Both the position numbers and the translations under genes were made by a program. The notes beneath the pieces were generated by a model. It saw only the letters and a program-made list of their open reading frames with translations. It made no database searches and had not been told where the DNA came from. DNA of 64,000 nucleotides from a virus: the IMG/VR virus record IMGVR_UViG_3300028416_000485. The stretch is one strand, 5' to 3'. Below are positions 1 through 25,605 of this stretch, piece after piece. Each line of letters starts with the position of its first letter. The first letter of the stretch is position 1.

Positions 1-38
1 TGGAATATCCAAGGAATGGGACAAAATGTGTTTGTCAT
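1..38 (-). CDS. Radical SAM protein, N-terminal fragment (continues beyond window)
   Basis: Not in ORF track. Reverse strand from ATG at 38 reads MTNTFCPIPWIF, matching the N-termini of neighbouring rSAM genes (TFCNLPWMH, TFCILPWVH). ATGA overlap with the stop of the upstream ORF. Confidence 0.7.
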   Translation of the reverse strand, partial: MTNTFCPIPWIF

Positions 39-688
39 AATATGTTCCTATCAGTTAACTGATCTTTAATCCAGTTAGCTTCCCATTGGTTTCCTTCTGT
101 ACCAAAATGTTCGCCGTCATCAACTACATATTTGTAAAACTGCTTTTCACCTAACTCAGTGAACACACTAGGAATATGAGATTCATATGATCTTCTATGA
201 TGGAAATAAAAATCTACATTATTTTTTACATAGTTTATGTAAACACGATGATCTAAATCAACTTGATCGTCGCACAATCTTTTGTAATATTCTACTCCAA
301 ACTTGTGTTTTTTGCGATCAGAATCTAAAAACTTGTTTGAAAGTATTGTTCCTGTATTAATACGGTCGACAAACTTGCCATAATCTTCCTCTAGGCAATA
401 ATAGTTGTCATATTTTTGATACATTATTTCTTTAAACTTATGAGGTTTCCACCATGTAAATCTTCCAGGACTTGTGACTTGAAAAAGTTTTACATCAAAA
501 GTTTTATCTTGCATTACTTGTTCTAATAAATGAGTATGATATGTTATAGCAGTTCCAGCTGCTGCAAAGTTATAAAATTTATGCTGAGGATACATCTTAC
601 TTAACCAAACTACCCAGTTATCAAAAACTTCTGATTTTACTCCTTGAGTCCAGCTACAACCAAATACTGCAATATTTTTAGACTTCAT
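35..688 (-). CDS. SGNH/GDSL-like hydrolase or acyltransferase
   Basis: Block I-like FGCSWTQG, block II-like NFAAAG, C-terminal DGEH (DxxH). Start moved to ATG 688, which has GGAG upstream. Confidence 0.6.
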   Translation of the reverse strand: MKSKNIAVFGCSWTQGVKSEVFDNWVVWLSKMYPQHKFYNFAAAGTAITYHTHLLEQVMQDKTFDVKLFQVTSPGRFTWWKPHKFKEIMYQKYDNYYCLEEDYGKFVDRINTGTILSNKFLDSDRKKHKFGVEYYKRLCDDQVDLDHRVYINYVKNNVDFYFHHRRSYESHIPSVFTELGEKQFYKYVVDDGEHFGTEGNQWEANWIKDQLTDRNIL

Positions 689-1862
689 ATTTTTTAAACT
701 CCGGTAATACATCATACAGATTTTGACCACGACTTTGGTCTAGTTGTTTACTATAATAATAGAATTTTTCTAGTTTGTCAACCCAGTTCTCAGCATTCAT
801 GTAGTCAATAACTCCTTGGACTTTATCTATATGTGTGTAGTTAGATAATGTTTTTGTAACTTGTGCTTTTAGTTCCTGAGGTAATACTCTTATATTTAAC
901 TCCTCAGGATGATTTAATATATTTAGATAAATTTTATGTCCAAACGGTTCTGCCCAATCTAAAAACTCATGCAATCGTGTTATGTTGTACATCTGTACTG
1001 TGCAATGTATTTCATTTACTACGTTATCCAACTGTCGTACTTTTAAAAAGTTTTCTTCAACTTTATTCCAGTTACTAGGATAACGAATATATCTATCCAA
1101 ATCTCCTATTGCATCAATACTTACATTACATTTTATTGCTTTAAATTCTTTCCATTTTTCTAATAGATAGTTTGGAATATTTGTTAGATTAGTGTTATAT
1201 TTTATTTTTACTTTTTTTGCACGGCCCGACTCTATTATTTTATCAAGTATAAATTCATGATCTTTAATAATAGTAGGTTCGCCGCCTGTAAGGTATACTT
1301 CTTCGATAGTTGGCAAAAAGGCATCAATATTTCTTTCATACTGTGTATACCGATACCAGGGCCAGGTTTCGCCACCAAGTCTTTTCATTTCGTCATCAGG
1401 TAAAGGATCATTAACCAAATGCCATTCATCTAACCATTGATTACTAGCATAAGGATTGCACATACGACATTTGAGATTGCACATATTTCCTAATCTAATA
1501 TCTGCATATACTATGTTTAGTTCGGGGGTTTCTGTATATTCTTTATCTTCTAGCCACCTATCCATCCATGACTGACGTAAACTTTTTATACCAGAGTCTT
1601 CTTCTTTCCAACAACGTGAACACATTTCCGGACGTTCGCCAGCTAACATTTGTTTACGTAGATTTACATAATCTGGGCTATTCCAAACTTTGTCAAGTGG
1701 CACCTTGCCCATTTTATAAGGTTTGCCAGTTTCAGGATCTTTGATGAAGTTTTTTCCAGGAGTACTGTTGCAGCAAGGACGAAAGTTTCCACTTGCATTA
1801 GTAGCAATGTGCATCCACGGAAGATTGCAAAATGTTTCTGATGGTGGTGATATCTTACTCAT
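678..1862 (-). CDS. Radical SAM protein with N-terminal Twitch/SPASM-like Cys cluster (class A)
   Basis: CNLKCRMC, TGGEP; N-terminal FCNLPW..PCC..CSRC. Confidence 0.92.
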   Translation of the reverse strand: MSKISPPSETFCNLPWMHIATNASGNFRPCCNSTPGKNFIKDPETGKPYKMGKVPLDKVWNSPDYVNLRKQMLAGERPEMCSRCWKEEDSGIKSLRQSWMDRWLEDKEYTETPELNIVYADIRLGNMCNLKCRMCNPYASNQWLDEWHLVNDPLPDDEMKRLGGETWPWYRYTQYERNIDAFLPTIEEVYLTGGEPTIIKDHEFILDKIIESGRAKKVKIKYNTNLTNIPNYLLEKWKEFKAIKCNVSIDAIGDLDRYIRYPSNWNKVEENFLKVRQLDNVVNEIHCTVQMYNITRLHEFLDWAEPFGHKIYLNILNHPEELNIRVLPQELKAQVTKTLSNYTHIDKVQGVIDYMNAENWVDKLEKFYYYSKQLDQSRGQNLYDVLPEFKKYEV

Positions 1863-2628
1863 CTGAGTTTATTCCAAGTTTGTTGATTAAATGAGTTGCT
1901 AATAACTCATGTGTGTATTCTTTAAAATGTCCTTGCGGATATATGTCTTTTTTATTATTAGTTCGTTTACTATAGTCGTCAAGTGTTGTTGTGTTAAATC
2001 GTAAATCTTTTAGTGCAACGCCCGGCTTATAAGTGTTGGTGGTATTTACTACATCTATCATATGCACTTTAGGATACATTGTCTTTATCATATGATATAT
2101 TCCTGCATTTGCTGCGCTCCAAAAGTAATCGCAAGGCCCGTCTAACAACATCATTTTGTGTAGTTGTTGTAAATGTTTTTGTTTGTGTGTTTTCATCCAG
2201 TTGAGATTGCGGTTGCCGTCCCAACGTTCTTCGTCAAACATAAATCTGTAAATGTGTGTATAACCAACAAATACAATATCATTGTCCCAGTCTATATGCT
2301 TTTCACGAACAACACTTAGCTCGTGTAAGGCTCTATCAGCACCTGATCCTCGTATTGCATGATTACACAGTTCGTATCCTAGTGACTCTGCAACTTTTCC
2401 TGCATATGACAAATGCTTTTCTTCTTGTAGTAGATCTGTAGTTTTATACAATTCGTCAAGCAAATCTGCCCAGTCATTTCTTACTCTACCAAGGTGTTTG
2501 TCGGGCACTTCCCAAATGTTTGTTGTGCCTGCATTTTCCAGCATCCATTTATCAGGATCTACATATTTAGACACTCCTAGTTCTGTTCCTAGTGTGTGAC
2601 TACAACCAAACGCCCAAACTCTACTCAT
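1855..2628 (-). CDS. SGNH/GDSL-like protein
   Basis: FGCSHTLG, NHAIRGSG, C-terminal PQGHF; same motif layout as 35..688. Confidence 0.55.
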   Translation of the reverse strand: MSRVWAFGCSHTLGTELGVSKYVDPDKWMLENAGTTNIWEVPDKHLGRVRNDWADLLDELYKTTDLLQEEKHLSYAGKVAESLGYELCNHAIRGSGADRALHELSVVREKHIDWDNDIVFVGYTHIYRFMFDEERWDGNRNLNWMKTHKQKHLQQLHKMMLLDGPCDYFWSAANAGIYHMIKTMYPKVHMIDVVNTTNTYKPGVALKDLRFNTTTLDDYSKRTNNKKDIYPQGHFKEYTHELLATHLINKLGINSDE

Positions 2629-3829
2629 AATATAAATCCTTTAAATAATCAAATTCTGTGTAGTAATCAAACAAACATTTGTTATTAACTTTATCCTGTG
2701 CTCGCATCCATTTAACAAATGTGTGATCAAATTCTGCGTTTACAGGTTTGTCTAGCCATTTTATTATTTTTTCTACACTCTGTGTTGCATGGTGTACTAG
2801 TCTGTTAGATGCATGTTGTTTTGTATATTCTAATCCTATATGACAGCGTTCTCTTATTACGTCTTTGAGATTATCTGGTAAGTTACAAATATCCATTACT
2901 CCAGGGTATTGTACAAAACTAACGTGCAATCTACTGTCTAGTTCTGTCCAAAACTTTAACACTTCATCTATCTTAACAGCATTAAGTACATTTACAGTAC
3001 AAGTAGCATGTAAGTCTAGTTGCTTGTTTTCTATTTGAGTCGACATCTGTGTTTTTACAGTGTTCCAGTTTTCTACAAGTTTATCTAAGTTGCCACCTTC
3101 ACGCAAGTATTCGTATGTGCTAGGATCTGAATCTACACTTACTCTACATATAACTCTTTTGTACAATGGCCAATGTTCTAATACATTGTTTAGATAGTGC
3201 AAGTTTGTACTATATTCAAGTGTGATATTTTGTGCATATGGCTTTAATACTTCCAACATTTCATGATGCATCGGGTGCATCAACGGTTCGCCGCCTGTTA
3301 TACGTATCATGTTTAAGTTAGGTGCAAAACTTTTAAGTTGTTGCATAGTATCTTCGGGCAACTGATTGATGCTAAAGTTTAAGCTACCACTTGAAATATC
3401 TTTTGCAACTTCATAAAATTCAGGATCTTTTTTACATTGCGTAACCCACTGACTACTAAACTTAGGACTGCAATGCCTGCATTTCATATTACACAAGTTT
3501 CCAAACCTAAACTCCATATCTCTTGGAAAGGGCGGTATTGTTAAATCTTCTACATCTTCGAGTGCTTCAACTTGTTCTGAATAATCCTCAAGCATTGTTA
3601 ATCTAGTGCTTTTGATTCCTGCTTCTTCCATTTGCCAACAACTTTTACATCCTTCAGGCTTTTCACCTGCAAGATGCTGTCGACGAAACTCTTGCCAGTT
3701 GTCGCTGTACCAAATATCCGTTAGATTAGTTGTAGTATAATCACCTAACTTTTCGTGACAACGCCAGCAAGCGGTTGCTGTTTTGTTTGGCTTTATATTC
3801 ATATGTATAAATGGCATAACACACTGCAT
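2621..3829 (-). CDS. Radical SAM protein, class A
   Basis: CNMKCRHC, TGGEP; N-terminal CVMPF..CWRC..CKSC. Start placed at ATG 3829 by analogy with paralogues. Confidence 0.92.
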   Translation of the reverse strand: MQCVMPFIHMNIKPNKTATACWRCHEKLGDYTTTNLTDIWYSDNWQEFRRQHLAGEKPEGCKSCWQMEEAGIKSTRLTMLEDYSEQVEALEDVEDLTIPPFPRDMEFRFGNLCNMKCRHCSPKFSSQWVTQCKKDPEFYEVAKDISSGSLNFSINQLPEDTMQQLKSFAPNLNMIRITGGEPLMHPMHHEMLEVLKPYAQNITLEYSTNLHYLNNVLEHWPLYKRVICRVSVDSDPSTYEYLREGGNLDKLVENWNTVKTQMSTQIENKQLDLHATCTVNVLNAVKIDEVLKFWTELDSRLHVSFVQYPGVMDICNLPDNLKDVIRERCHIGLEYTKQHASNRLVHHATQSVEKIIKWLDKPVNAEFDHTFVKWMRAQDKVNNKCLFDYYTEFDYLKDLYYE

Positions 3830-3839
3830 ACTGTACTTA
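3827..3839 (-). promoter_or_regulatory. Candidate late promoter variant TAAGTA, 4 nt before ATG (leaderless)
   Basis: TAAGTACAGTATG, identical to 13186..13198; resembles the TAAATA motifs of the structural region; no SD. Confidence 0.45.
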
Positions 3840-4949
3840 CCGTATATAATGTGCGTACATTTCAGAGATGAGCGTCTCCAAATCAACACCTCTATGCTGT
3901 TTCATATACTCAGCTTGTGTCCAAAACTTTTCTATTATTTTATCACTTGGAGTGTACATATAGTTTTCTTCTATATCCTTGATAATATTTTTTAGATCGC
4001 CTTGCTCTGGGTCTTCGGCTTGTTTTAGTTCTTCAACAATCTGTTCGAGCTTGCTAGGCTGTATTAAGTTTACCCTATACTCTTCTGGAAATCTTACAGG
4101 AGTATAAACCATATAATCAAATAAATATCCTTGTTCGTTAATAAACTTTGGTATTTGATGTATATTAAAAGATGTTACTGTCATAGTGTTAATGATTGTA
4201 AATCCTTTATCCTTATATTGCTTGAGATTTTCTTCGATTACATTCCATTCGCTTCTTGGACGTTGATAATGCAATACATCTTCTTGCCCGTCAATTGACG
4301 TTAGAAAATGCACAGTGTCAAAAGTTTTTAAGAAATCGGTTACTTCGTTGTCATATATACTACCGTTTGTTCTATATTGTATTTTTACATCTTTTGAAAG
4401 TTTACTCAAAAAGTCTAAATTTTTCTTTTTATGCAACAACGGTTCTCCGCCGGTGATTTGTACATGACGTAAGTTCGTCATTTGTGGTAGCAAATCTAAC
4501 AGTTGTGTATCATAAAAATCGTTTATTTCCGAAAGAGGCGTACTCCAGTTTTGTTCTTTTGCGATCAAATGACTCGATCCTGCGCCGCACATCACGCATT
4601 TAAAGTTACACAAGTTACTAAACTTAATATACAATGCTTCAACATCAGACGGATCAAATACTTCTTTAACAATACCTTTGTTATTAAATTCTCTAATACT
4701 ACGCAATCGAGGAGTGTCTATACCTAGCTTTTCTTTTGATACACACATTTTACACAACTCTGGAGTAATACCATTTACAGCATCTTTGCGCATTTGTTTT
4801 AGTGTATCGCCGTTTATAAGATCTTTTCCATTATGAATTAATACATGATTTTTAGGATCTAACTTATCAACATGACAACAAGGCATTACCGACCTTGATG
4901 GATTTTCTGAAATATTAATGCCGCCTGCTAGCCAACCACACTTAAACAT
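3837..4949 (-). CDS. Radical SAM protein, class A
   Basis: CNFKCVMC, TGGEP; N-terminal C..PCC..CKMC. Start 4949 gives a TGATG overlap with the upstream gene. Confidence 0.92.
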   Translation of the reverse strand: MFKCGWLAGGINISENPSRSVMPCCHVDKLDPKNHVLIHNGKDLINGDTLKQMRKDAVNGITPELCKMCVSKEKLGIDTPRLRSIREFNNKGIVKEVFDPSDVEALYIKFSNLCNFKCVMCGAGSSHLIAKEQNWSTPLSEINDFYDTQLLDLLPQMTNLRHVQITGGEPLLHKKKNLDFLSKLSKDVKIQYRTNGSIYDNEVTDFLKTFDTVHFLTSIDGQEDVLHYQRPRSEWNVIEENLKQYKDKGFTIINTMTVTSFNIHQIPKFINEQGYLFDYMVYTPVRFPEEYRVNLIQPSKLEQIVEELKQAEDPEQGDLKNIIKDIEENYMYTPSDKIIEKFWTQAEYMKQHRGVDLETLISEMYAHYIR

Positions 4950-5956
4950 CACACACCACACTTTGCTGTGCAAATACCTAGCAAACTATTTTTAAATGAA
5001 TGTGGCAAATCTTTTTTAAAAAAGTCATGATTTACAATATCTTTAAACGAATGCTTATGTAAGTTATTAAAATCTTTGCCATACAACTCGATTTTTTCGT
5101 CGAGCCATTCAAAATTGCCACGCCATCTGCTGCCTGTATGAAAACTTAAATAGCAACAAGGCCATACTTCACCCATCTGGTTTACTTGTAAATTTTTTTC
5201 TTGCTGCCACGGACATGCACTTTTTATTTTTACTAGTTGTTTCTTCTGTTCTGCATTACCAATATATTCTACAGCAGATCGCATAATATCTACTTCTTTA
5301 GCAGTAGGTGCAGTAATTGTGCCTGCAGGAAATTCTTTATATTCGTCTGCTTTATTTTCTGTAAAATAACTACGATTTAGTGTAAATGAACAAAACCCTA
5401 AACGTTTAGCCATATCACTTGCTTCTTTTAACTGATGTTTGTTATGATCAAATACTATCATTCTCCATCGTGCATCGGCGCCATGGTCCATAAATGTTTT
5501 TGCATTAGCCATTACCTGATTAAAGTCGACTCCACGGCGATAGATATGATTAGTATCTTCTAACCCGTCGATACTAAACACAACTTCCGAGTCGTTAAAC
5601 AACTGGTACACTTTTGCAAGATCTATCCAAAATTGTGTATTCCTAGCTCCACCGTTTGTATGTATTGCTAGTTTTATTTTAGGATGTATTTCATGTAGAT
5701 AGTATAACATATCAACGATTTCTGGATGACTTGTAAAATCTCCATAGTTTCCATTAAAAGTTATGAGATGCATATTACTATGTTTAGCAAAGTTACAAAC
5801 TTCTTTCCATATAGACCAAGACATATGCTGCAATTTTAATCTTGGATTTACGGGGCCGCCATTAATATTACGAATACATGAAGGACAAAAACTATTACAG
5901 TAACTTGTTACATCTATTTGTATTTGATAAACATCGGTATCATTAATTGTTTGCAT
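4949..5956 (-). CDS. Radical SAM protein with C-terminal SPASM/Twitch-like Cys cluster (class B)
   Basis: N-terminal CNSFCPSC, GNYGD in place of GGEP, C-terminal C..WPCC..CTAKC. Start 5956 gives a TAATG overlap. Confidence 0.9.
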   Translation of the reverse strand: MQTINDTDVYQIQIDVTSYCNSFCPSCIRNINGGPVNPRLKLQHMSWSIWKEVCNFAKHSNMHLITFNGNYGDFTSHPEIVDMLYYLHEIHPKIKLAIHTNGGARNTQFWIDLAKVYQLFNDSEVVFSIDGLEDTNHIYRRGVDFNQVMANAKTFMDHGADARWRMIVFDHNKHQLKEASDMAKRLGFCSFTLNRSYFTENKADEYKEFPAGTITAPTAKEVDIMRSAVEYIGNAEQKKQLVKIKSACPWQQEKNLQVNQMGEVWPCCYLSFHTGSRWRGNFEWLDEKIELYGKDFNNLHKHSFKDIVNHDFFKKDLPHSFKNSLLGICTAKCGV

Positions 5957-7101
5957 TAAAATAACTCCGGTGTTATTAGGTGTTCTAACTTGTTCCAAAG
6001 CTCGCTGTTTTTATCCATCCAGTGTTCCTTGCGTAGCTTATTTAACTGTGCATCATTTCTTAAAAACAATCCAAAGTTTCCTGGTTGTTTAATCTCGTGT
6101 ACAAGTTGTGCAAATATTTTACGATATAACACACTATAGTTTTTTTCAATATTTTGCAAGTATTCTAAAATCCAAGGTTTTACATCTTCGTGCAAGTTAC
6201 GTGGTTGCATCCACTCCGGTCCATCAACAACCACACATTCATGATACAACTCTTGTTCTATACAAAAATCTAATATTTCATGCACTTTGTTTATATTGTA
6301 TATACTAAATGCACTGTGTACATTTATATGTTTAAAATGCTGTTTGTACCAAGCAAGATTGTTGTAAACTGTGTTCCAGTTACTATCTTTACGAAGAAAC
6401 TCATTAAGCTCTCCGTAACTATCAATACTTAAATCAATATGTACTTTTTTACACTGTTGTAATAGTTCAACCAGTTGTTTGTTTGGTAATATACTTACAT
6501 TTGTTACTAGCAATATAGTCAACTGGCTAAGATTGCACTTGTTGAGTACTTTGATTAGTTTGTCTTGTTCCATCATCGGCTCGCCGCCGAGCACTTTTAT
6601 AAATCTTAAATCAGATAAATCATAATGGTTAACAATAGTGTTGTCTGTGATAATGCCTTTTGGTATTTTCCATCCAAGTTTTTTAGCATCACTGTACCAA
6701 TGTGTACTAAGTTCCGGCATACACATTCTACATTTATTATTACACACATTACTAAGAGCTAGATCGATATTTGTAAGTTTTTTTATCTTTCCTCTGCCTT
6801 CTTCTTCTGTGGGTAATCCAAAATCTCCTATAAGTCCGGCATTAATGTCAGTACGCATACTCCTAGCACTACTTTTTTCATCATCATAACATTTTTTACA
6901 GCCATGAACATACTCATCTTTGGACATTTTTTGTCTAAGATAGTTCATATATTCGTGATTGAACGGATCAGGATGTGCTACATTTAAATCGTCTGGAACT
7001 TCTTCTTCTCTAAACACACAACAAGGTCGTATTTGTCCATCAGGACGCATAGCCATGTGATGAAATGGCAATGCACATGCATATTTTGGTACACTAGGCA
7101 T
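5956..7101 (-). CDS. Radical SAM protein, class A
   Basis: CNNKCRMC, LGGEP; N-terminal CALPF..PCC..CKKC. Confidence 0.92.
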   Translation of the reverse strand: MPSVPKYACALPFHHMAMRPDGQIRPCCVFREEEVPDDLNVAHPDPFNHEYMNYLRQKMSKDEYVHGCKKCYDDEKSSARSMRTDINAGLIGDFGLPTEEEGRGKIKKLTNIDLALSNVCNNKCRMCMPELSTHWYSDAKKLGWKIPKGIITDNTIVNHYDLSDLRFIKVLGGEPMMEQDKLIKVLNKCNLSQLTILLVTNVSILPNKQLVELLQQCKKVHIDLSIDSYGELNEFLRKDSNWNTVYNNLAWYKQHFKHINVHSAFSIYNINKVHEILDFCIEQELYHECVVVDGPEWMQPRNLHEDVKPWILEYLQNIEKNYSVLYRKIFAQLVHEIKQPGNFGLFLRNDAQLNKLRKEHWMDKNSELWNKLEHLITPELF

Positions 7102-7648
7102 ACCATTTCTCTGATTGCATTGGATCAATACTTAGTTCGTTGATGTTCAAATGACTAGGCTGATCTACCATCCATTTGACATATTCAGCAGCTAGATTGA
7201 TATCCATAGTTTTTCTATCTGGGTGTTTTTCTTGATTATTGTCTAGTGTTCCAAAACTAATATAGCTTATTTTAGGACCACTTGCCCATACACCTGTAAG
7301 TCCTAACGTATTACTATAATCACGCAATGCTTTCTTTTCAGCATTGTATAACCATGCTCCGCCTTTTTTAACTCTATCAGTAGTGCTGCCTATGTTGATA
7401 ATATGGCATTGATGATTTTCAAGTGTGCATTTTTTATAGACAATATCAAGTAAACTAGTTTGATTGAATCTAAACAAAGCACTACAGTTAATAAACACAT
7501 CATGTGCTAGTACTGCTTCTGCACAGCGTTCCATGTCTAGTTTTTTACCAAAATCGTAGCCAGTACTTCTACTAATAAACTCTGCATCAGGATAAATCTT
7601 TGCTAATGCTCCAGCTACACCGGTGTCTTTGTTACCCGTTATGATCAT
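7094..7648 (-). CDS. Short-chain dehydrogenase/reductase (minimal SDR)
   Basis: IITGNKDTGVA Rossmann motif, INCSA, IINIGS, catalytic YxxxK (YNAEK). Confidence 0.8.
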   Translation of the reverse strand: MIITGNKDTGVAGALAKIYPDAEFISRSTGYDFGKKLDMERCAEAVLAHDVFINCSALFRFNQTSLLDIVYKKCTLENHQCHIINIGSTTDRVKKGGAWLYNAEKKALRDYSNTLGLTGVWASGPKISYISFGTLDNNQEKHPDRKTMDINLAAEYVKWMVDQPSHLNINELSIDPMQSEKWYA

Positions 7649-8786
7649 CTAATACTCCTATATCTATGTGGTTGTTTAGCACGTTTAATAGTTTATCTGT
7701 TTGCATACTCTTAGGAGCACATAGACCGCAACCACATGTCTGTTTTGGACAAACAATAGTAGGCATAGTACCAGATTGCATTTGTTTTCTTAAATCGTCA
7801 ACTAACTTTTTACCTTCACTTATTTTTCCTATTGCGCCTCTTGTGCCATTAAACTTTGCTTGACAGGTTTGATGATGAAACACTTGATCGGTTTGCTGTT
7901 CTAAGTGTAAGAAAAACCAGTTAACACTACACTTCCATCCTTTAAACTCTCTAAAATCTACAAATGTACTCTTACGTTTTTCTGTACCGTTGTGAAGCAT
8001 CATATCTCTACTGCCGCAACAAGGACGTCCTATACTACTTCCTAGTTTTTTTGCATTTTTTACAACATCACCTACTGCACTACTAGCATACAATGCATCA
8101 TTCTTTTGTTTCCAATAGTTTTTCATCCACGCAAGTTGTTCTTCATTATATTGATGAGCAAAGCTAGGTTTGCTATCAGGCTCTTCGCCGATAACCCGCG
8201 GAACAAAATCAACACCGTGTTGCAGTAAAAACTCACATAGTTCTTTACACTCGTCAAAATATTCTGCATGAAACATAACATTTACACTAACTGTACACCC
8301 ATACATATCGCCCTGATAGTGTAGTTGTAGTATTCTGTCTTTTACTTGTTGTTTGAGTTTACTATCACTTTCACTGTGATAGCTAATAGTGGCATGACAA
8401 AAGTTTTCCATTATTGCTTGGCCCATTTTTTCACTAAATGCACCATTGCTTGTAAGGGCAAAATCAGCTTCCCACTTGTCTTGATATTTTGCTTCGTATG
8501 CTTCTTTTAAATATTTTGCAAACGGAATAAAGTGCGGATTTACCGTAGGTTCGCCGCCTGTAAATCCTACATTTGCTTCCTTGAAGTTACGATGTTCCAT
8601 GTACACGTCAATGTATTCAAACAAGAAATCTACGTTGGCTTTTAGTTCATCTAACGTAGCATGTTTACTAAAGTTGTCATGTCTGTGTATTGGGCAATAA
8701 CTACAGTCATAGTTGCACCGTCTTCCAAGATCCCATGTCACTTGAAACAACTTTCCAGTTAACAAATCAATAGTATCAAAACTCAT
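7632..8786 (-). CDS. Radical SAM protein with Cys-rich C-terminus (class C)
   Basis: CNYDCSYC, TGGEP; C-terminal PCCG..WKC..TC..CPKQTCGCGLC. Confidence 0.9.
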   Translation of the reverse strand: MSFDTIDLLTGKLFQVTWDLGRRCNYDCSYCPIHRHDNFSKHATLDELKANVDFLFEYIDVYMEHRNFKEANVGFTGGEPTVNPHFIPFAKYLKEAYEAKYQDKWEADFALTSNGAFSEKMGQAIMENFCHATISYHSESDSKLKQQVKDRILQLHYQGDMYGCTVSVNVMFHAEYFDECKELCEFLLQHGVDFVPRVIGEEPDSKPSFAHQYNEEQLAWMKNYWKQKNDALYASSAVGDVVKNAKKLGSSIGRPCCGSRDMMLHNGTEKRKSTFVDFREFKGWKCSVNWFFLHLEQQTDQVFHHQTCQAKFNGTRGAIGKISEGKKLVDDLRKQMQSGTMPTIVCPKQTCGCGLCAPKSMQTDKLLNVLNNHIDIGVLDDHNG

Positions 8787-9600
8787 TTATTTCCTCAATG
8801 ACAGATTTTACTTGCTTATCTGCCCAATCTCTTTCTTCGCACCACCAGCACTGTTTACATTCTGGAATATACATTCCTGCATTATAATCTCTAAAATGGC
8901 CGCATGCCTCTTTTATACTTTCCATATGATTTATATCACCTTCACAACTACGTGTTGTGTCATACAAATCTAAAATATTTCGTATATGATACTGTGCTAC
9001 AATCCAGTCTTTTTTTACAAATCTAAAAGGATGTACAAACGTTGATTTTACTTTACCGCTGTAAAACCACACGTCGGACGTTACGCCATCCTCTGCATCT
9101 TTGTCTCTATTGGTCATGCGGTCTTCACGCAAATCGTCTGGGTTTTTACTAGTAGCATTGTACACTGCATCTAGTTTATATTCCCAAGCAGCAAACTTAT
9201 TGTAACTTCCTACTATGATCTGATCGCCACTTTTGCCGTTGATACTTGCTCCTATTACACCGTGTTCTATTTCAGGTGGAATATATGTTGTATATCTATT
9301 CTCAATAATATATGGAAACATATCTTTTAGTTTGTTGAATACTTGTAAACTAATATATCCTTGCCATGGTCTTGTTTCCCAACAACGTTGATATGTAATC
9401 ACATCTACTTTTGTATCTAGATTATTACGTTGTATGATTGTACACAACAGATATGTCAGCAATGCACTATCAGCACCACCTGAAAGATTGATGCCAATAC
9501 GCTGCCATCTTGTATCAAAAGGAATAGTCAACTTACTAAAAGTTGTAAGCAGTATGTCATTTGAAATATTTTTGTATAAAGAATTGTTTGTATTAAACAT
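8776..9600 (-). CDS. QueC-like PP-loop ATPase
   Basis: PP-loop LSGGADS; C-terminal TRSC...CKQCWWC zinc-type motif as in QueC. Confidence 0.7.
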   Translation of the reverse strand: MFNTNNSLYKNISNDILLTTFSKLTIPFDTRWQRIGINLSGGADSALLTYLLCTIIQRNNLDTKVDVITYQRCWETRPWQGYISLQVFNKLKDMFPYIIENRYTTYIPPEIEHGVIGASINGKSGDQIIVGSYNKFAAWEYKLDAVYNATSKNPDDLREDRMTNRDKDAEDGVTSDVWFYSGKVKSTFVHPFRFVKKDWIVAQYHIRNILDLYDTTRSCEGDINHMESIKEACGHFRDYNAGMYIPECKQCWWCEERDWADKQVKSVIEEINEF

Positions 9601-10927
9601 TTCGTATAACTTCTCCGTTTACAAACTTGTAGTTTTTAATATGTTGATTAAAATCTTGCTTCCATATTTTATCTGTTTTTTCAATATACTTCATAAAAGC
9701 AGTCCAATCAGATTTTTTTGCATCGTAGTTTAAAATGTATTTTCTTATATATTCTAAACCTGCTACTGCACTATTGATATCTTGCCACATATCGTAAGGC
9801 TGTTCTATTCCTACTTGGAAGTGACTTTTTAATATCCTAGACGACTCTATGTTCTCTCTTCTTTTTTTATCTACACCAAATATAGCATTACGTGTTTCTT
9901 CGATATCGTTTAATACCGAACTTCTATGTTTCAATAACATTACACTTGGATTTAGATAATCAGGTGTATACACTATACTAACATTGATATAGTTAATGTC
10001 AAGTTCTAAAAAACTAAGCATCGCATCTTTTATTTCCATAAGTTGATATGTTCCTGTAGTGTAAACTATATTAATCTCGCAATGATTATTGTCAGCTTGT
10101 TTAAAATGATTTATATTTTCTTTTAGCTTTTGCCAATCGCCTTGTCTAAAGTAAGGATATAATCTAGGACCAGCATCTACGCTTATTTGAATGTTTACAT
10201 CACCAAACAAGTTTAATAACCTACTTAACTCAACTGCATCAAAATCTGCATTAAAGTTACTATGGAAAATGATTTTCATATTTTCAGCATTAGGATGTTC
10301 AGATAGTTTGCTGAGTGTTGGAAAGAACTGTTTTTGATACAACACTTCGCCGCCGGCAAAATCTACTCTTTCGAGGTTTGGAAAGTTGGTGTTGAGATCT
10401 TCGACTATTTCTAAAGCACGAGCTGTACTAATACTTATAGTATAATCATCATCTGCATCTTGTCGATGCATTTGTCCAGTTAGCTGTATTAGATTGTGTT
10501 TATAATCTTCATCGTCAGGTGTGTATTTTTTTAGCTTGGACATCCAGCCGCTGCTGAATACTTGACTACAATGCAAACAGCTCATATTACAACTATGGCT
10601 AAAACGCATCTCGATTGTTTTTAATCCTTCAAATGCTGTTTCTCCGGTTTCGTTATTATAATATTGCAAATCAACATCTTGCTCTTGACGCATACTCTTG
10701 CCTGCGTTTGCTTGTTCAACATGTTCACACATATTGCAGCCTTTGCACCAAGTTCCACTCATTAGTTTTTTACGATGATTTTTAAAGTTTTCATTATTAA
10801 AAAACTTGCTTGGTAGGTACTCATCATCAAGCATTTGAAACTTTTCGTGTTGTGTAGGACAACTCGTTGCAAATCCATTTTTAAAGTTGATTCCGCCTAC
10901 AGCATAATAACAATCTAAACTAGCCAA
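9593..10927 (-). CDS. Radical SAM protein, class A
   Basis: CNMSCLHC, AGGE; N-terminal C..SCP..CKGCNMC; TTG start with GGGAG upstream. Confidence 0.9.
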   Translation of the reverse strand: MASLDCYYAVGGINFKNGFATSCPTQHEKFQMLDDEYLPSKFFNNENFKNHRKKLMSGTWCKGCNMCEHVEQANAGKSMRQEQDVDLQYYNNETGETAFEGLKTIEMRFSHSCNMSCLHCSQVFSSGWMSKLKKYTPDDEDYKHNLIQLTGQMHRQDADDDYTISISTARALEIVEDLNTNFPNLERVDFAGGEVLYQKQFFPTLSKLSEHPNAENMKIIFHSNFNADFDAVELSRLLNLFGDVNIQISVDAGPRLYPYFRQGDWQKLKENINHFKQADNNHCEINIVYTTGTYQLMEIKDAMLSFLELDINYINVSIVYTPDYLNPSVMLLKHRSSVLNDIEETRNAIFGVDKKRRENIESSRILKSHFQVGIEQPYDMWQDINSAVAGLEYIRKYILNYDAKKSDWTAFMKYIEKTDKIWKQDFNQHIKNYKFVNGEVIRNV

Positions 10928-11798
10928 AGATTTTCTCCCATAAACTTTGTTTTTGTTTTGGTATATCTAATAAAAATCCGCTGACATTGTCCTTTCCCCA
11001 TTGTTTTTCCTGACAGAAAAAACAAGTTCCGCATTCTGGAGGATATTTAGTTTTGTAATCTTCTTTAATATCAACTATGCCAGCTTCACAACTTCGTGTT
11101 AACTTTAATAAATCATCTAACTTATAGTTAACATACTGTGCCATTGTATAGTTTTTTCTTAGAAGCCCAAAAGGATTAATACAAGATCCTGTAATAACCC
11201 AATCCCAGTTATCCTTAACAACTTTTTCATTTCGAAATTCAGGTGCTTGATTGTTATCCAAAGGAGGATTCATAGTGGTTCCGCTGTATACCCATTCGTA
11301 GTTATAAGATTTTATTAAATATTCTTGATAACCGTGTGTTATTAACACATCGCATTTTGCCATTGGTGGCAATGTCAAGTTGGGTAGATTTAGATTTTTT
11401 AAAGGCACTGTTTCAAATTCGTGTGGCAAGAATCCCCAATGCTGCATACCAATGATATTTGGAAACTGTTTTTTTAAATATTTAAAAGCATCTTCTGCCA
11501 TTGGTTTTAGCCAAGGCTTTTGTTCCCAGAAACGTACCATTGTGTATACATCTATTTTTGTTTTGAGTTTTTCTCTTTTAATAAGTGTACACAACATGTA
11601 AAGTAACAGACTGCTGTCGGCACCTCCACTAAATGCTACTAATATTTTTTTTGCATGTTTATCAAGATGTATAGGCAGGTTGTTTATTCTATAAACAGTG
11701 GGATATCTTCGAGTATAGTTCTTTTTTTCAAACTGATCGACAAAATTTCGTTTTTTATAATGTAGTTCTAAATAGTCTAAGTACTTAGTATCATCCAT
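10920..11798 (-). CDS. QueC-like PP-loop ATPase (second paralogue)
   Basis: FSGGADS; TRSC...CGTCFFC; shares R.WE..PW and P.E.E motifs with 8776..9600. Confidence 0.7.
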   Translation of the reverse strand: MDDTKYLDYLELHYKKRNFVDQFEKKNYTRRYPTVYRINNLPIHLDKHAKKILVAFSGGADSSLLLYMLCTLIKREKLKTKIDVYTMVRFWEQKPWLKPMAEDAFKYLKKQFPNIIGMQHWGFLPHEFETVPLKNLNLPNLTLPPMAKCDVLITHGYQEYLIKSYNYEWVYSGTTMNPPLDNNQAPEFRNEKVVKDNWDWVITGSCINPFGLLRKNYTMAQYVNYKLDDLLKLTRSCEAGIVDIKEDYKTKYPPECGTCFFCQEKQWGKDNVSGFLLDIPKQKQSLWEKIFG

Positions 11799-13188
11799 CA
11801 AAAATATCTTTCATCTCAGGAAATGTTTCAGCAAAGGTAATACCACGTTGTTTGTCGCATAGGTTTATAAACTCTTGCATTTCCGGCAAGCGTCTACTCC
11901 AGTCCTCTGATTCCATAAACTGTAGCATACCGTTAAGACGTTTAATACCATAAGGAGCGGCGTCAAACATTGCTTTGGTTACTTTACCTTTGTGCCAACT
12001 AGGAATACCTAGTTCCCAGTTTTCTTCCCACCATGGATAAAACTCTTCATACTTTTTACGTACTTCTGCTTTAAACCATTCTGGCAGCACTTTAACATTC
12101 AAGTGCGGAGGATGGTAAACAAAGTGGTAGTTTACTCCGCCTGCGCCAAAGGGCCACATGTTGATCTTTTTAAATCTTTTCTCTAGTTTCCACTTGATAA
12201 AATCTGGTATGTAGTATATGTTTAGTGCTTGTACTGCACATGCTACAGTTATTTCTACATTGTTACTGGTTTCGTTATCTAATATATGAAATACTTCTTC
12301 CTGACGTTTCCATTCACTTGGATAACGAATATAATCATTCATTTCATGTATGCTATCTATCGAATAGTGGAAGCGCACCAGTTTGAATTCTCGCCATAGA
12401 TCAAATAAATCTTCTCTCCATTCGACTCCATTACTGTTATAACGTAGTTCGAGATCTTTTGCATAGCCCATTTTAATCGCATGTTCAAGTATTTCATAAT
12501 GTTCCTCAATGATAAGACTTTCGCCGCCGGCAAAGTATATTTGTTGCATACTTGGCATTTGTTCGTAAAACTGTTTCCAAAATACTGGATTTTGTTTATG
12601 CCAGTTGTAGCTACTGCCGTTTGTACTGCCTTTGTCTTGCCACTGCATTGTTTCTTTGAGTGACTCATTCTTAACACCTGGAAAGATTGCCTTGTAATCT
12701 TTGATCCAACCACTACTATCGTGTGGTGAACACATTACACATGCCAACTGACACTTGGTGCCGAAGCGTAAGTCAATGTATGCTAGGTTAGGAGGCACTT
12801 CGCCGTCTTCTGTTGTATCGGCTATCAGTTTGTCAACATCAGTACGCTGGCTCCAGTATGCTGTTTCCCACATACGTTTACTATTGTGTCCTGCTGCTTC
12901 TTCTCTATAGCACTTCAAACAACTAGGAGGCTTTTCACCGTTCATCATTTGCTTGCGTACATTTTTCATGTATTCACTATTCCAAGCAGTTTGAAAATCA
13001 GTCACGTTTAAGTTGTTTGGCTTTCCGTCATCGGTTTTAAGAATACCAACTTGTCCGCCATGTTCTTTATCGTTGGTGGCGCCTACACTACTAGCGTTTG
13101 CTGTACAGCATACTCGCATACTACCATCTGGTCTTGTACTAAGGTGTACCCATGGAAGGATACAAAATGTGTCACTTACTTTGCTCAT
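11791..13188 (-). CDS. Radical SAM protein, class A
   Basis: CQLACVMC, AGGES; N-terminal FCILPW..VCC..CLKC. Confidence 0.92.
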   Translation of the reverse strand: MSKVSDTFCILPWVHLSTRPDGSMRVCCTANASSVGATNDKEHGGQVGILKTDDGKPNNLNVTDFQTAWNSEYMKNVRKQMMNGEKPPSCLKCYREEAAGHNSKRMWETAYWSQRTDVDKLIADTTEDGEVPPNLAYIDLRFGTKCQLACVMCSPHDSSGWIKDYKAIFPGVKNESLKETMQWQDKGSTNGSSYNWHKQNPVFWKQFYEQMPSMQQIYFAGGESLIIEEHYEILEHAIKMGYAKDLELRYNSNGVEWREDLFDLWREFKLVRFHYSIDSIHEMNDYIRYPSEWKRQEEVFHILDNETSNNVEITVACAVQALNIYYIPDFIKWKLEKRFKKINMWPFGAGGVNYHFVYHPPHLNVKVLPEWFKAEVRKKYEEFYPWWEENWELGIPSWHKGKVTKAMFDAAPYGIKRLNGMLQFMESEDWSRRLPEMQEFINLCDKQRGITFAETFPEMKDIFDG

Positions 13189-14249
13189 ACTGTACTTATA
13201 CCTTTATCTGCGTAGTTTATTTCATTATGATATGCTTTATTTTTTGCACATGTTCTAATACATCTACTAAGATGTAATGGATGACTTGGTTGCCAACTTG
13301 CTGTTAATAGATCTTTATACCAAGGATGTTGCATTACTTCTTCCTTGGTGTGTAACAGTAAACTATTCCACCCAGGTTCAAATCTGTTTAGTTTCTGCAT
13401 TATACCTTCTCTGTTTTTAAATGCACTATCCCATAAAAAACAACACGGCCACATAGTCTGATCACTTGCTATAAATATTTCACCTTCGTGGATATACTTA
13501 CATATAATACTATCAACTACTTCTTTAGTTTTTTTGGCATCAGCTTTATGAGATTTATACTCAGTAATAAACTTATCTAAATCTTTCATTATATCTTTTT
13601 TACTATGCTCTTTACTTCCTGTAGTTGTAATAACTTTTTGTTCCGTTTGTTTTTTAGTTTTTATTTTTGCAACCCAATCGTGATAACTATTACGCATTCC
13701 AGTACGTGTAGCAAAATCAAATCCTAGTACTGCGGCATGTGCTCTAGCAGTAACTAACTCTTGCTCATTGTGATCAAAAATAATATAAATCCATGTAGCA
13801 TGACGTTCTGGTGCTGCTTCAGAAAATGCTATAATATTGCGTTCTACAACACTCCATTTGGTGTTTACTCTATATATGTGATTGGTGTTTTTGTGTCCGT
13901 CAATACAAAAATGTATATGCAACTTTCCAATATACATTGATGCAAGTTCGCCTAGTTGTTTCCACCACGCTGCATTATTATATCCACCATTGGTACTATA
14001 TTCACAATAAGCACCTTGACTAAGAAGGTACTCTGTCATAGCCAAACAATCAGGATTGGTAATAGGATCTCCAAGCACACCACAAAACTTGAACTCTACT
14101 CCATTGTAATCTGCAGGTGGAAATATTCGCTGCAGATCTTGCAGTGAAAAACTGTTTATTCTCAGCAAATCACTATTAAGTGTTCTAGCACAACCCGGAC
14201 AAGCTGCATTACAATCACTGGTTATTTCTAGTTCAACTTTTTTAATCAT
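13185..14249 (-). CDS. Radical SAM protein, class B
   Basis: CNAACPGC, CGVLGDP, C-terminal C..WPCC..CIRTC. Confidence 0.9.
   Translation of the reverse strand: MIKKVELEITSDCNAACPGCARTLNSDLLRINSFSLQDLQRIFPPADYNGVEFKFCGVLGDPITNPDCLAMTEYLLSQGAYCEYSTNGGYNNAAWWKQLGELASMYIGKLHIHFCIDGHKNTNHIYRVNTKWSVVERNIIAFSEAAPERHATWIYIIFDHNEQELVTARAHAAVLGFDFATRTGMRNSYHDWVAKIKTKKQTEQKVITTTGSKEHSKKDIMKDLDKFITEYKSHKADAKKTKEVVDSIICKYIHEGEIFIASDQTMWPCCFLWDSAFKNREGIMQKLNRFEPGWNSLLLHTKEEVMQHPWYKDLLTASWQPSHPLHLSRCIRTCAKNKAYHNEINYADKGISTV
13186..13200 (-). promoter_or_regulatory. Candidate late promoter TATAAGTA, 4 nt before ATG
   Basis: TATAAGTACAGTATG: one mismatch to the T4 late consensus TATAAATA; 13 nt shared with 3827..3839. 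Confidence 0.5.
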
Positions 14250-15421
14250 ATTAGTTCTGCTAACTCTGGAAAGGTTTCTACAAAGTTAGTATTCCTTTTT
14301 TGGTCCCACATCTCTATTGTTTTTTTAAAGTTACGGTGAAGATTAGGATTATCATCACGTATATTTAGATAATCAAATAATCGATGATTTTTTTGTAGTT
14401 TGTATAACTTTGAATTTGCAAACATCATTTGCTGATCATTTAGTAGCACCGGAGTGTATGCTGTTGGCCCGTGCCATGGTAACAAAATCCAATTGTCCAT
14501 ATCAATATCATTGTCAATATACCATTCTTCTAGTGTATCTATAGTTAGTGCATTAAACAAACTATAACTTGTTTGTACGTGTACTTTTGCAACTTGTTTT
14601 ATTCTGTTGTAGTTTTTTAACCATTTTTCTTCTACCAGCGGATATCTAATATATGTACCACGCTTGCCAAAATGATCATGACTAAATGTGATATCAAAAT
14701 TTGTAAACTTTGACAGATAATCATTTACAATATCTTTGCCTTTGTATGTACTTACACTGCCATTTGTATGCGATGTAATGTGTATGTCAAATATTTTGTT
14801 ATCAATCAATACATCAAATAGTTTGTAGTATTGTTCTTGCATAAAGGGCTCACCTCCGTTACAATGTATTGATTGTATTGTATCCGCATGTTCTAAAATG
14901 TATTCAATAATAGGATCTATATTATTACTCCATTCGCTGGATACATTAGTATGTCGTATATCTAAATCTCTTTGTATTTCTATATCAGTATAGTTTTTTG
15001 CCCATGTACTACTAAGTTCAGATTCGCATCCTAGACATGCAAAGTTACAGTTATTACTTACAAGTAAATCAACAAAAATAGGTTTTTGTTCTGATAAATC
15101 AGCACTCATTACCTGTTTACTATAATGCATTGCCTTGTATGCATTTTCATTTGAAAACATTTGTACATTATGTATGCTGCCGGTTTGATTATAAAACTTG
15201 CTGCAAGACTGGCAACTATTTTTAGGATAGTTTCCTTCTAAAAAATCCTGGCGAGTAAGTTTTGCAGATTTGCTGTTGTAAACATTTTCAATAGAACTGT
15301 AGTTATAGTTGCCAAAACTACTAGTAGATGCGCAACACGGTTTTACAATACCATCTCTTCCAAAATATATTTGGTTAAACGGTGCATAACAAAATGTTTT
15401 ATTTTTCCAATACGGCGTCAT
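14246..15421 (-). CDS. Radical SAM protein, class A
   Basis: CNFACLGC, NGGEP; N-terminal FCYAPF..PCC..CQSC. Confidence 0.92.
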   Translation of the reverse strand: MTPYWKNKTFCYAPFNQIYFGRDGIVKPCCASTSSFGNYNYSSIENVYNSKSAKLTRQDFLEGNYPKNSCQSCSKFYNQTGSIHNVQMFSNENAYKAMHYSKQVMSADLSEQKPIFVDLLVSNNCNFACLGCESELSSTWAKNYTDIEIQRDLDIRHTNVSSEWSNNIDPIIEYILEHADTIQSIHCNGGEPFMQEQYYKLFDVLIDNKIFDIHITSHTNGSVSTYKGKDIVNDYLSKFTNFDITFSHDHFGKRGTYIRYPLVEEKWLKNYNRIKQVAKVHVQTSYSLFNALTIDTLEEWYIDNDIDMDNWILLPWHGPTAYTPVLLNDQQMMFANSKLYKLQKNHRLFDYLNIRDDNPNLHRNFKKTIEMWDQKRNTNFVETFPELAELI

Positions 15422-16497
15422 TTAAACTGCTCTGCAAATGGGTCAAACTCTTTGCCACATTTCATGCTGCATACTTTTAGTTTTCCATCAGCTATACTTT
15501 TCTTATCCCAACTATTTTGTATATTATCAAAAATGCCTGTTTCAAATACTGCACGTAATCCATGTTTTTTAGCACTAATAGCATCTTTGCCTCCAGCTGC
15601 ATCAACAAAATCCCATACTTGTTCTTGCTTAGGATCTTTGTGCCACCATTTGTACATACGTCCAGCAGTCCAACAACACGGCATAGCAAGTCCTTCTGCT
15701 GTAATAAACAAGTTGCCTTCGTCTTTTACTTTACAATGTATAGCAGCACGATCATAATAAGTATCCATACTTCCGTGTTTTTCTTTTACTTTGTCGTATG
15801 TTTCGAGTGCCTTGTTTAAATACTTGGCATCAGGTTTTTTAAGTTTGGCAGTTTGTTCACCTTTGCGATTTACTGCTTGATGTGATTCTTTCTTTTCACT
15901 TTGTGCTGTTACAAATCTGCCAGTTTTCTTCTTAACAAATCTTTCGCATCCCCATGTATTTGCAAGTGCTTCAGCTTCTTCAACTTGGTGTTGATTGTGT
16001 TCAAAAATTAAAAAGTCCCAACGTGCTCTGCCACCTGCTGCAATAAACGCTCGCATGTTGCGTTCTACATTATCCCATACAACGCCTTGACGATACAGGT
16101 GATTAGTATCCCTTAAACCATCAACACTAAAAATAACAGCACCCATCCGGCCAATAACATTAGCCAACTCACTCCACCATTCAACACTTTTTGCTCCTGC
16201 ATTTGTATTCATACTGAGCCACATTTTATCATTGTGTTCACGGAAGTACTTGAATATTTCTAGTGTATCTCGTGCTACAATAGGATCGCCCAAGTTACCG
16301 CACATATACATAGTGTTCAGTTGTGCAATAAACTCTGGTTCAAAGATGCGTTTACAATCATCTAGTGTAAGTTCGCTCAAATCAATATGCGGATTTAATG
16401 CTCCGCCGTTTTGATTTCTATCACACATAGGGCAACTGGCTTGACAGTTTTGTGTGTTTTCTAAATGTATTGTTTTTATATTTTCGTACTTATACAT
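15418..16497 (-). CDS. Radical SAM protein, class B
   Basis: CQASCPMC, CGNLGDP, C-terminal C..MPCC..CSMKC. Confidence 0.9.
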   Translation of the reverse strand: MYKYENIKTIHLENTQNCQASCPMCDRNQNGGALNPHIDLSELTLDDCKRIFEPEFIAQLNTMYMCGNLGDPIVARDTLEIFKYFREHNDKMWLSMNTNAGAKSVEWWSELANVIGRMGAVIFSVDGLRDTNHLYRQGVVWDNVERNMRAFIAAGGRARWDFLIFEHNQHQVEEAEALANTWGCERFVKKKTGRFVTAQSEKKESHQAVNRKGEQTAKLKKPDAKYLNKALETYDKVKEKHGSMDTYYDRAAIHCKVKDEGNLFITAEGLAMPCCWTAGRMYKWWHKDPKQEQVWDFVDAAGGKDAISAKKHGLRAVFETGIFDNIQNSWDKKSIADGKLKVCSMKCGKEFDPFAEQFK

Positions 16498-16714
16498 CCA
16501 TTATCAACTTTACATCTTTACCAGGACCAACCTTACTGGGTAGGTCGCCATACTGTTCAACATACCATTCAATAACAGCCTTGTACCAGTTTTGACTGTT
16601 GTGATGTGCTTTCTTATTAAACTGCCAAATATTATTGTTAGTTGCTTGTATTGTACTTAGAGCTCTTGCACTTTCTTTTTGTAGCTCACGTACACTTAAA
16701 TCACTTATATCCAA
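16490..16714 (-). CDS. Small hypothetical protein (74 aa)
   Basis: Fills the gap between the methyltransferase and rSAM genes with overlaps at both ends; TTG start. Confidence 0.65.
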   Translation of the reverse strand: MDISDLSVRELQKESARALSTIQATNNNIWQFNKKAHHNSQNWYKAVIEWYVEQYGDLPSKVGPGKDVKLIMDV

Positions 16715-19374: not shown

Positions 19375-19381
19375 ATAACTA

Positions 19382-19410
19382 GTTATAACATATTTTAATC
19401 AACAAGTCAA
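19382..19410 (-). promoter_or_regulatory. Sigma70-type promoter for the GT/MTase/rSAM operon
   Basis: TTGACT-N17-TATAAC; the -10 element is 7 nt from ATG 19374 and there is no SD. Confidence 0.7.
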
Positions 19411-19423
19411 GAACAGAATGTGA

Positions 19424-19429
19424 TAAATA
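19424..19429 (+). promoter_or_regulatory. Late promoter motif TAAATA
   Basis: GATAAATAC upstream of SD GAGGA and ATG 19453; the same motif precedes structural genes. Confidence 0.6.
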
Positions 19430-19452
19430 CTAGAGAAGAGGAACCAACAAAA

Positions 19453-20883: not shown

Positions 20884-20920
20884 GATAACATATTAAAAAG
20901 TCTTCAAAGGAGAGTAAAGT

Positions 20921-25604: not shown

Positions 25605-25605
25605 A

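Follow-up and report, generated by a model that had tools for sequence, protein, structure and literature searches.

The stretch of 64,000 nt analyzed here (the window), from the IMG/VR virus record IMGVR_UViG_3300028416_000485, carries a dense array of genes for radical S-adenosylmethionine (rSAM) enzymes at positions 1-16497 and one further gene of this kind at 22773-24146 (Table 1). As proposed in an initial annotation of this sequence, eleven open reading frames (ORFs) in the first 16.5 kb, of which they occupy ~79%, each contain an in-frame CxxxCxxC motif, and the separate ORF at 22773-24146 is indeed a twelfth; all other CxxxCxxC strings in the window lie out of frame. The twelve genes are co-directional (minus strand), again as annotated, and every array junction overlaps by 4-53 nt. 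In fact, every gene between 1 and 19374 is read from the minus strand, with ends that overlap or abut. The sole gap of the array is occupied by an ORF of 74 amino acids (aa), 16490-16714, whose end overlaps the start of the rSAM gene 15418-16497. A truncated rSAM gene had also been placed at the left edge, but the ORF found there, 35-730, encodes a complete protein of 231 aa, has its stop codon at position 35, and contains no CxxxCxxC. The array itself likely continues past this edge, because in other related phages further rSAM genes follow the orthologue of 678-1862. Searches of IMG/VR with an exact 33-mer from the left edge and with the 35-730 protein returned no match and no relative, respectively.

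All twelve proteins match the Pfam Radical_SAM profile (PF04055), eight of them above its gathering cut-off of 29.5 bits. Two of the remaining four, 14246-15421 (23.8 bits) and 22773-24146 (24.3 bits), exceed the cut-off (170 bits) of the NCBIfam family NF033640 (N_Twi_rSAM), while 13185-14249 (19.5 bits) and 15418-16497 (28.9 bits) share a profile with 4949-5998, which is itself above the PF04055 cut-off. Pairwise identity among the paralogues is 20-31%, in agreement with the high divergence originally described.

Table 1. Genes of the rSAM island and its partners in the window (E, expectation value; pLDDT, predicted local distance difference test score; dN/dS, ratio of nonsynonymous to synonymous substitution rates; GT, glycosyltransferase).
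Position	Strand	Gene product	Length (aa)	Observations
35..730	-	Putative SGNH/GDSL-like protein, complete	231	FGCSWTQG block-I-like motif; DUF1574 E 8e-6, below cut-off
678..1862	-	Class A N_Twi rSAM	394	NF033640 387 bits; CxxxCxxC at residue 128; Cys 12/30/31/81/84; AlphaFold2 pLDDT 92
1855..2628	-	Putative SGNH/GDSL-like protein	257	N-terminal FGCSHTLG; no family match
2621..3889	-	Class A N_Twi rSAM	422	NF033640 273 bits; no orthologue >45% in 80 related loci
3837..4973	-	Class A N_Twi rSAM	378	NF033640 210 bits; no orthologue >45% in 80 related loci
4949..5998	-	Class B rSAM (core first, C-terminal twitch/SPASM-like Cys domain)	349	Radical_SAM 30-192, SPASM 262-347
5956..7128	-	Class A N_Twi rSAM	390	NF033640 239 bits; dN/dS 0.04
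7094..7648	-	Short SDR-like protein	184	Weak adh_short and YdfG matches below cut-off; conserved in 30 loci
7632..8786	-	rSAM of another type (N-terminal core, Cys-rich tail)	384	Radical_SAM E 2e-9
8776..9600	-	QueC-like PP-loop ATP-dependent enzyme	274	SGGADS, TRSCEG, CxxCxxC; AlphaFold2 pLDDT 85
9593..10927	-	Class A N_Twi rSAM	444	NF033640 194.5 bits
10920..11801	-	QueC-like PP-loop paralogue	293	33% identical to 8776-9600; weak PP-loop, TilS, QueC-like matches
11791..13188	-	Class A N_Twi rSAM, lineage anchor gene	465	NF033640 422 bits; dN/dS 0.02-0.04
13185..14249	-	Class B rSAM	354	CxxxCxxC at residue 13; C-terminal C-x18-CC-x59-CxxxC; class B profile 392 bits
14246..15421	-	Class A N_Twi rSAM	391	NF033640 243 bits
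15418..16497	-	Class B rSAM, second conserved anchor	359	Orthologue in 74/80 loci, 64-96% identity; dN/dS 0.03-0.08
16490..16714	-	Conserved protein	74	In 74 loci; 34 invariant alignment columns; dN/dS 0.04-0.13
16701..17744	-	Repeat protein with methyltransferase-like C-terminal domain	347	Rossmann-like motifs only; no family match
17728..19374	-	Three ~110-aa repeats and GT-A-like domain	548	Glyco_tranf_2_3 E 9.5e-4, 19.7 bits vs 27-bit cut-off
19420..20868	+	Fibre-like protein inside island	482	Gly/Thr-rich repeats, fibre-type C-terminus; weak PHROG matches 409-481
21140..22201	+	ANL-type adenylating enzyme	353	Pfam AMP-binding E 4e-18; generic acyl-CoA ligase/adenylation-domain matches
22773..24146	-	Class A N_Twi rSAM	457	NF033640 299.5 bits
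24146..25069	-	GT-A-like domain paralogue	307	31% identical to residues 322-545 of 17728-19374
25062..27603	-	Four genes without family match, island head		Library scans without match

Two Permuted Architectures in One Array

Eight of the enzymes, here termed class A, match NF033640 end to end (194-422 bits), whereas the three class B enzymes (28-42 bits) and 7632-8786 (22 bits) do not reach its cut-off. The family is defined by an N-terminal twitch-type cysteine domain followed by the rSAM core, as in class A, and is only catalogued: no characterized member was found. In class A, the match to the Pfam SPASM model covers residues ~10-90 and precedes the core; this domain follows the pattern C-x17-CC-x~50-CxxC and can be aligned with the BtrN twitch domain (E 1e-5). 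Invariant in all eight sequences are C12, C30, C81 and C84 of the N-terminal domain, the CxxxCxxC motif, a GGE motif (G193, G194, E195), an SxD motif and an arginine. The full seven-cysteine SPASM motif (CX9-15GX4C ... CX2CX5CX3C ... C) is absent, as the domain contains four to five cysteines and no CX2CX5CX3C; it is thus of the twitch type and probably holds one auxiliary cluster.

The class B enzymes (4949-5998, 13185-14249, and 15418-16497) present the same elements in the opposite order, with the core first and a C-x18-CC-x~60-CxxxC domain last. Where class A has the GGE motif, they show a different conserved sequence, G-x-x-GD. On 4949-5998, the match of the class A profile is split into two pieces with swapped order, and the class B profile matches 3837-4973 and 5956-7128 with the order likewise swapped; classes A and B are therefore circular permutations of one architecture. 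When the profile of the class A N-terminal domain is set directly against that of the class B C-terminal domain, the match is weak (E 0.004), and the permutation is based instead on the split profile matches. Compared with NF033640 as catalogued, the window thus adds these three permuted relatives and the single enzyme of another type, 7632-8786.

Among the proteins of known structure, a partial TIM-barrel rSAM core combined with a cysteine-rich auxiliary-cluster domain is also found in BtrN, SkfB, anSME, CteB, BlsE, and MoaA, but in class A the auxiliary domain precedes the core. The AlphaFold model of 678-1862 has only distant neighbors in the PDB (SkfB, CteB, anSME, viperin, SuiB, and BlsE), with TM-scores of at most 0.41 over the model and 13-17% identity, and its helical C-terminal third has no counterpart in the solved twitch and SPASM structures. 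The structural neighbors of the model include enzymes acting on sugars and small molecules (BlsE, DesII, viperin, MoaA). By sequence, the best PDB match of the rSAM core is SkfB (E 3e-11), and a tetraether lipid synthase ranks third.

Conservation and Exchange Among Related Phages

Related phages were collected from IMG/VR with a pattern derived from the anchor gene 11791-13188, and the best 80 loci were fetched. Nearly all stretches that match the pattern (294 of 295) encode a relative of this gene, and in the best 80 loci its identity is 85-97%. Both 15418-16497 (class B) and the 74-aa gene occur together with the anchor in 74 of these 80 loci. Among the 37 loci that span the full 21 kb, the number of rSAM ORFs per locus ranges from 6 to 14 (median 10). 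In five related records, 8-13 NF033640 members over the cut-off were counted per record, mostly within one island of ~45 kb. A count of paralogues by Radical_SAM matches, as recommended with the initial annotation, gave 15-20 in four related records and 8 in the fifth, which is a fragment. Some relatives contain B12-binding rSAM genes in addition. With regard to the heavy Fe-S demand on the host that had been suggested, genes for A-type Fe-S carriers or for Fe-S assembly were not found in four relatives.

The genes had been described as intact, which fits the picture of old paralogues under strong purifying selection: compared with three relatives (dS 0.2-1.0), every shared rSAM gene shows a dN/dS of 0.005-0.10, and relaxed selection is thereby ruled out. 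The lowest values (0.005-0.01) belong to 7632-8786, which is 99% identical in amino acid sequence to its closest relatives. At the same time, the content of the array is variable. The region 5956-19374 is common to the three closest relatives at 78-99% identity, but orthologues of 2621-3889, 3837-4973, and 4949-5998 are missing from them, and the cassettes downstream of 5956-7128 are replaced. The absence of orthologues from relatives that are 94-99% identical in the shared genes implies that the content changes by cassette. The array had been interpreted as a single multi-step radical pathway; such exchange, even among close relatives, is better explained by a modular tool-kit than by a fixed linear pathway.

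An Accessory Island Next to the Fibre Genes

To judge from its structural genes, the window is a fragment of a jumbo myovirus. Outside the island it encodes a baseplate wedge protein (phrog_10646, E 2e-293), a baseplate hub, three fibre-like proteins, and a protein of 4540 aa, as well as SbcC-like and exonuclease-type proteins. At 32-36% identity, the wedge protein resembles its counterparts in the jumbo phages Atu_ph07, Phosso, GAP32, and PA5oct. The attribution of the array to a phage, rather than to housekeeping families on a cellular contig, is likewise supported by the membership in NF033640 and by the viral origin of the nearest protein clusters. Related IMG/VR records of 256 kb at an estimated completeness of 72% imply a genome of ~350 kb. 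The close relatives come from seawater metagenomes, and a megablast of positions 1-20000 against cultured phages returned no match. The stretch would accordingly represent the right-hand portion of an extensive, hypervariable island of accessory genes in an abundant, uncultured marine jumbo myovirus, adjoining the tail-fibre and baseplate genes.

Several partner genes are interspersed with the rSAM genes or lie directly upstream of them. The motifs SGGADS, TRSCEG, and CxxCxxC of the two PP-loop proteins are invariant in 17 aligned sequences, and the closest PDB neighbor of the 8776-9600 model is QueC (3bl5, TM 0.46/0.62), followed by NcsA, TtuA, TilS, Cap9, and LarE. In profile searches, neither of them yields a Pfam or NCBIfam QueC match (PF06508) over the cut-off, and their homologues in relatives have only faint precomputed QueC matches. 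The two SGNH-like proteins, 35-730 and 1855-2628, have an N-terminal FGCSxTxG motif in common. In 16701-17744, four units of ~25 aa (DLRKAV..N.HSIFRL; a 66-nt tandem repeat at 17389-17519) precede the enzyme-like domain, and 17728-19374 is similarly built, with its repeats ahead of a GT-A-like domain that has a conserved DGD. PDB-sequence profile searches with the alignments of the PP-loop, 16701-17744, and GT-like proteins gave nothing significant, and most accessory genes have no match in PHROGs or NCBIfam.

The minus-strand island is interrupted by a plus-strand insert (19420-22808), which comprises the fibre-like gene, a 72-aa ORF (20921-21139), the ANL adenylase gene, and a gene for a 204-aa protein without family match. 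Further to the right, the three fibre-like proteins (29751-31286, 31326-33248, and 33249-35234, all minus strand) have ~90 N-terminal residues in common (phrog_14394, phrog_15511) and differ in their C-terminal domains, a pattern suggestive of alternative fibres that share one adaptor. The 4540-aa ORF (35863-49485, minus strand) lies between these fibre genes and the baseplate wedge gene. Close to the right end, the coding direction switches to the plus strand (60619-63407), with an ORF at 60619-61632 followed by the SbcC-like gene at 61629-63407 (phrog_77, E 3e-99).

The T4 late-promoter motif TATAAATA is not enriched in the window (4 found vs 11.9 expected), and overall the sigma-70 and terminator scans do not exceed chance. 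Two of the six best sigma-70-type matches, though, sit in the two main intergenic gaps in the correct orientation: a near-consensus site at 27655-27627 (minus strand) upstream of the four genes at the island head, and a near-consensus site with an extended TG at 20855-20883 (plus strand) before the 72-aa ORF. These sites hint at transcription of the island by the host polymerase, which we regard only as a lead. The window contains no tRNA genes.

Relation to Known rSAM Arrays

The initial annotation assumed that phages usually carry only a few rSAM genes, but this premise is outdated. The Campylobacter phages CP220 and CPt10, with 11 and 12 rSAM genes, respectively, have an interchangeable module of five such genes (Timms et al., 2010; PMC2853527), and 12 rSAM genes are present in a T4-like genome of marine origin (Nishimura et al., 2017; PMC5332604). 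Pelagimyophages possess a hypervariable host-recognition cluster in which fibres and glycosyltransferases are combined with radical SAM cassettes (Zaragoza-Solas et al., 2020; PMC7029224). The likeness to CP220 and CPt10 lies in the multi-rSAM module of a T4-like phage; however, their host and habitat are different, the relatives of the window phage reach 20 rSAM matches, and NF033640 members over the cut-off are absent from CP220, whose four matches are confined to the core. The pelagimyophages and the phage genome of Nishimura et al. resemble the window in layout, with a hypervariable island of tail fibres, glycosyltransferases, and rSAM cassettes in the structural region of marine myophages, but they are T4-like with genomes of ~150-180 kb, whereas the window phage groups with jumbo phages, with relatives of ~350 kb. 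The enzymes themselves are not analyzed in either of the two studies (PMC7029224, PMC5332604). Multi-rSAM phage arrays have hence been on record since 2010, and the present stretch adds a member of a recorded but unexplained type. The additions made here are the selection figures, the pair of permuted architectures within one array, the conserved core of 74-aa gene, class B gene, and N_Twi gene, and the QueC-like fold of the PP-loop partners.

The family extends well beyond this lineage. A search of 1.84 billion representative proteins with a profile of the eight class A paralogues yields 7,718 clusters (50% identity) at E <= 1e-30, tandem fusions included. The nearest clusters in the ESM Atlas are 88-100% viral, and 14 control genomes contain no NF033640 member over the cut-off. 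Many library proteins of ~800 aa hold two complete N_Twi units in tandem, and in some proteins of 1100-1466 aa N_Twi units occur alongside TPR repeats; these might be true fusions or merged gene calls. Culturable carriers are Vibrio phage K566, with four matching places, and Ralstonia phage RsoM2USA, with two.

Matches also occur in cellular genomes. Seven species-genome matches (40-47% identity) fall into metagenome-assembled genomes (MAGs) of Bdellovibrionia/Oligoflexia, on contigs of up to 3 Mb, and four of these genomes carry 8-20 clustered family copies each (~14 in 30 kb). The neighbors there include two Asp/Asn beta-hydroxylases, and a methyltransferase and a clear GT-B glycosyltransferase (E 2.5e-18) lie inside a Bdellovibrionales array. 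The clustering of copies and the C-domain of 16701-17744 (38% identity, E 2e-34, in the Bdellovibrionales locus) are common to the phage and Bdellovibrio-like arrays; the latter differ in being located in cellular genomes and in having no 74-aa, QueC-like, or GT-A-like gene in the stretches compared. Two more matches (56-59% identity) come from MAGs of Crocinitomicaceae (L090) and Gammaproteobacteria (L091, MED685). Both loci carry the 74-aa gene with the class B rSAM gene (67-78% identity) and the 16701-17744 C-domain (37-44%), and L091 additionally carries a GT-like gene. Both contigs probably belong to phages of this lineage and were binned into MAGs, and the binning could be a weak hint at the host.

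Candidate Substrates of the Array

Each of the twelve rSAM enzymes would be expected to bind a SAM-cleaving [4Fe-4S] cluster, as suggested by the CxxxCxxC and GGE motifs, and the eleven class A and class B enzymes presumably hold an auxiliary cluster on four conserved twitch-type cysteines. Enzymes of this kind could abstract hydrogen from unactivated carbons, leaving the substrate oxidized, epimerized, dehydrated, or cross-linked. The putative partners are QueC-like enzymes that might activate carboxylates at the expense of ATP, the ANL adenylase, SGNH-like esterases or acyltransferases, and methyltransferase-like and GT-A-like proteins. Together, they may form a modular tailoring kit, the cassettes of which are exchanged between related phages, and the most likely product would be a decorated surface glycoconjugate, displayed on the virion fibres or on the envelope of the infected cell and affecting recognition.

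We tentatively consider the tailoring of a glycoconjugate the most likely role of the island, with a protein substrate nearly as likely. It leads because most of the support in the window points this way, i.e., GT-, SGNH-, methyltransferase-, and short-chain dehydrogenase/reductase (SDR)-like genes together with amide-forming ligases, each piece being weak by itself. It is also favored because the cassette variation resembles that of O-antigen loci and the island is positioned among fibre genes, and because the host-recognition cluster of pelagimyophages matches this arrangement (PMC7029224). The GT-B and methyltransferase genes inside the Bdellovibrionales array and the sugar and small-molecule enzymes among the structural neighbors point the same way. 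Several observations weigh against it. No gene for nucleotide-sugar synthesis was recognized in the window, and the GT-A-like domain stays below the Pfam cut-off, with an hhalign comparison to eight GT2 proteins at E 0.014, in which the DxD motifs are aligned. Neither a canonical GT2 nor an ABC-2 exporter is present within the two main Bdellovibrionales arrays (G008:C1:745-775 kb and G007:C2:2131-2154 kb; four genomes), and no family member with a known substrate was found. To our knowledge, there is no precedent for a single glycan that requires ten to twenty radical steps. Moreover, the best neighbors of the rSAM core in sequence and structure, SkfB, CteB, anSME, and SuiB, are peptide maturases.

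The last point is at the same time an argument for the tailoring of proteins or peptides, which we tentatively place just behind. The rSAM enzymes might cross-link, oxidize, or epimerize the fibre proteins, giant virion proteins, or the 74-aa protein, in the manner of the SPASM/twitch maturases, while the PP-loop and ANL enzymes add amide-linked groups. The island is flanked by fibre genes and the 4540-aa protein; three of nine long homologues have TPR repeats fused to their N_Twi domains; Asp/Asn beta-hydroxylases adjoin the arrays of Bdellovibrionales and of a phage contig of 343 kb; and the QueC-like fold includes Cap9, for which a PDB deposit in complex with the modified protein CdnD exists. 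The highly conserved 74-aa gene, which lies directly upstream of 15418-16497 and ends inside its start, could occupy the place of a precursor gene for a ribosomally synthesized and post-translationally modified peptide. However, it is the single small ORF for twelve enzymes and is conserved over its entire length like a folded protein, with no variable core. Pfam and NCBIfam matches suggest no RRE (PqqD-like) domain in these general library scans, no dedicated search having been made, and the GT-like, SGNH-like, and methyltransferase-like partners suit a glycan equally well.

Other substrates appear less probable. The island could make or remodel a lipid, e.g., the acyl chains of lipid A, or a diffusible metabolite, similar to a natural-product cluster. 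The best named matches of the ANL enzyme are fatty-acid-CoA ligases, the tetraether lipid synthase mentioned above is a high-ranking match of the rSAM core, and in Vibrio phage K566 a PagP annotation is located ~9 kb away from the small cluster of rSAM genes. The island of one relative contains genes for FA_desaturase, aminotransferase, and nitroreductase, and B12-binding rSAM genes, as found in some relatives, are typically associated with C-methylation in natural products and lipids. Yet these hints all derive from relatives or generic matches, and neither a lipid-specific enzyme nor a transporter or regulator of the type found in metabolite clusters was recognized in the window, which makes a lipid or small-molecule product unlikely. 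We give still less credence to the hypermodification of nucleic acids, in which QueC-like and rSAM enzymes would build a modified, 7-deazapurine-like base for phage DNA or tRNA. The PP-loop proteins do combine the QueC-type SGGxDS motif with CxxCxxC, and QueC is their best structural neighbor, with the tRNA-modifying PP-loop enzymes NcsA, TtuA, and TilS close behind. This reading is weakened by the absence of TGT/DpdA (PF01702) from the five related records examined (up to 256 kb, 24-72% complete). The QueC profile remains below the cut-off in four of these five records, NCBIfam scans returned no QueD, FolE, or QueE equivalogue, the window offers no tRNA gene, and both the cassette-level variability and the position among fibre genes would be unusual for a DNA-modification module.

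A wider proposal, which includes both a glycan and a fibre protein as substrate and which we offer as speculative, is that N_Twi arrays could be a combinatorial radical-tailoring system common to jumbo phages and Bdellovibrio-like predators. Such a system might write variable marks on a surface macromolecule and thereby set recognition, superinfection exclusion, or resistance, by a chemistry that no characterized rSAM enzyme performs. In abundant marine jumbo phages, tens of kilobases are given over to the N_Twi family, and the identification of its substrate would open a large block of enzyme chemistry. The answer could also explain a hypervariable region that probably has a bearing on host range or on the competition between phages.

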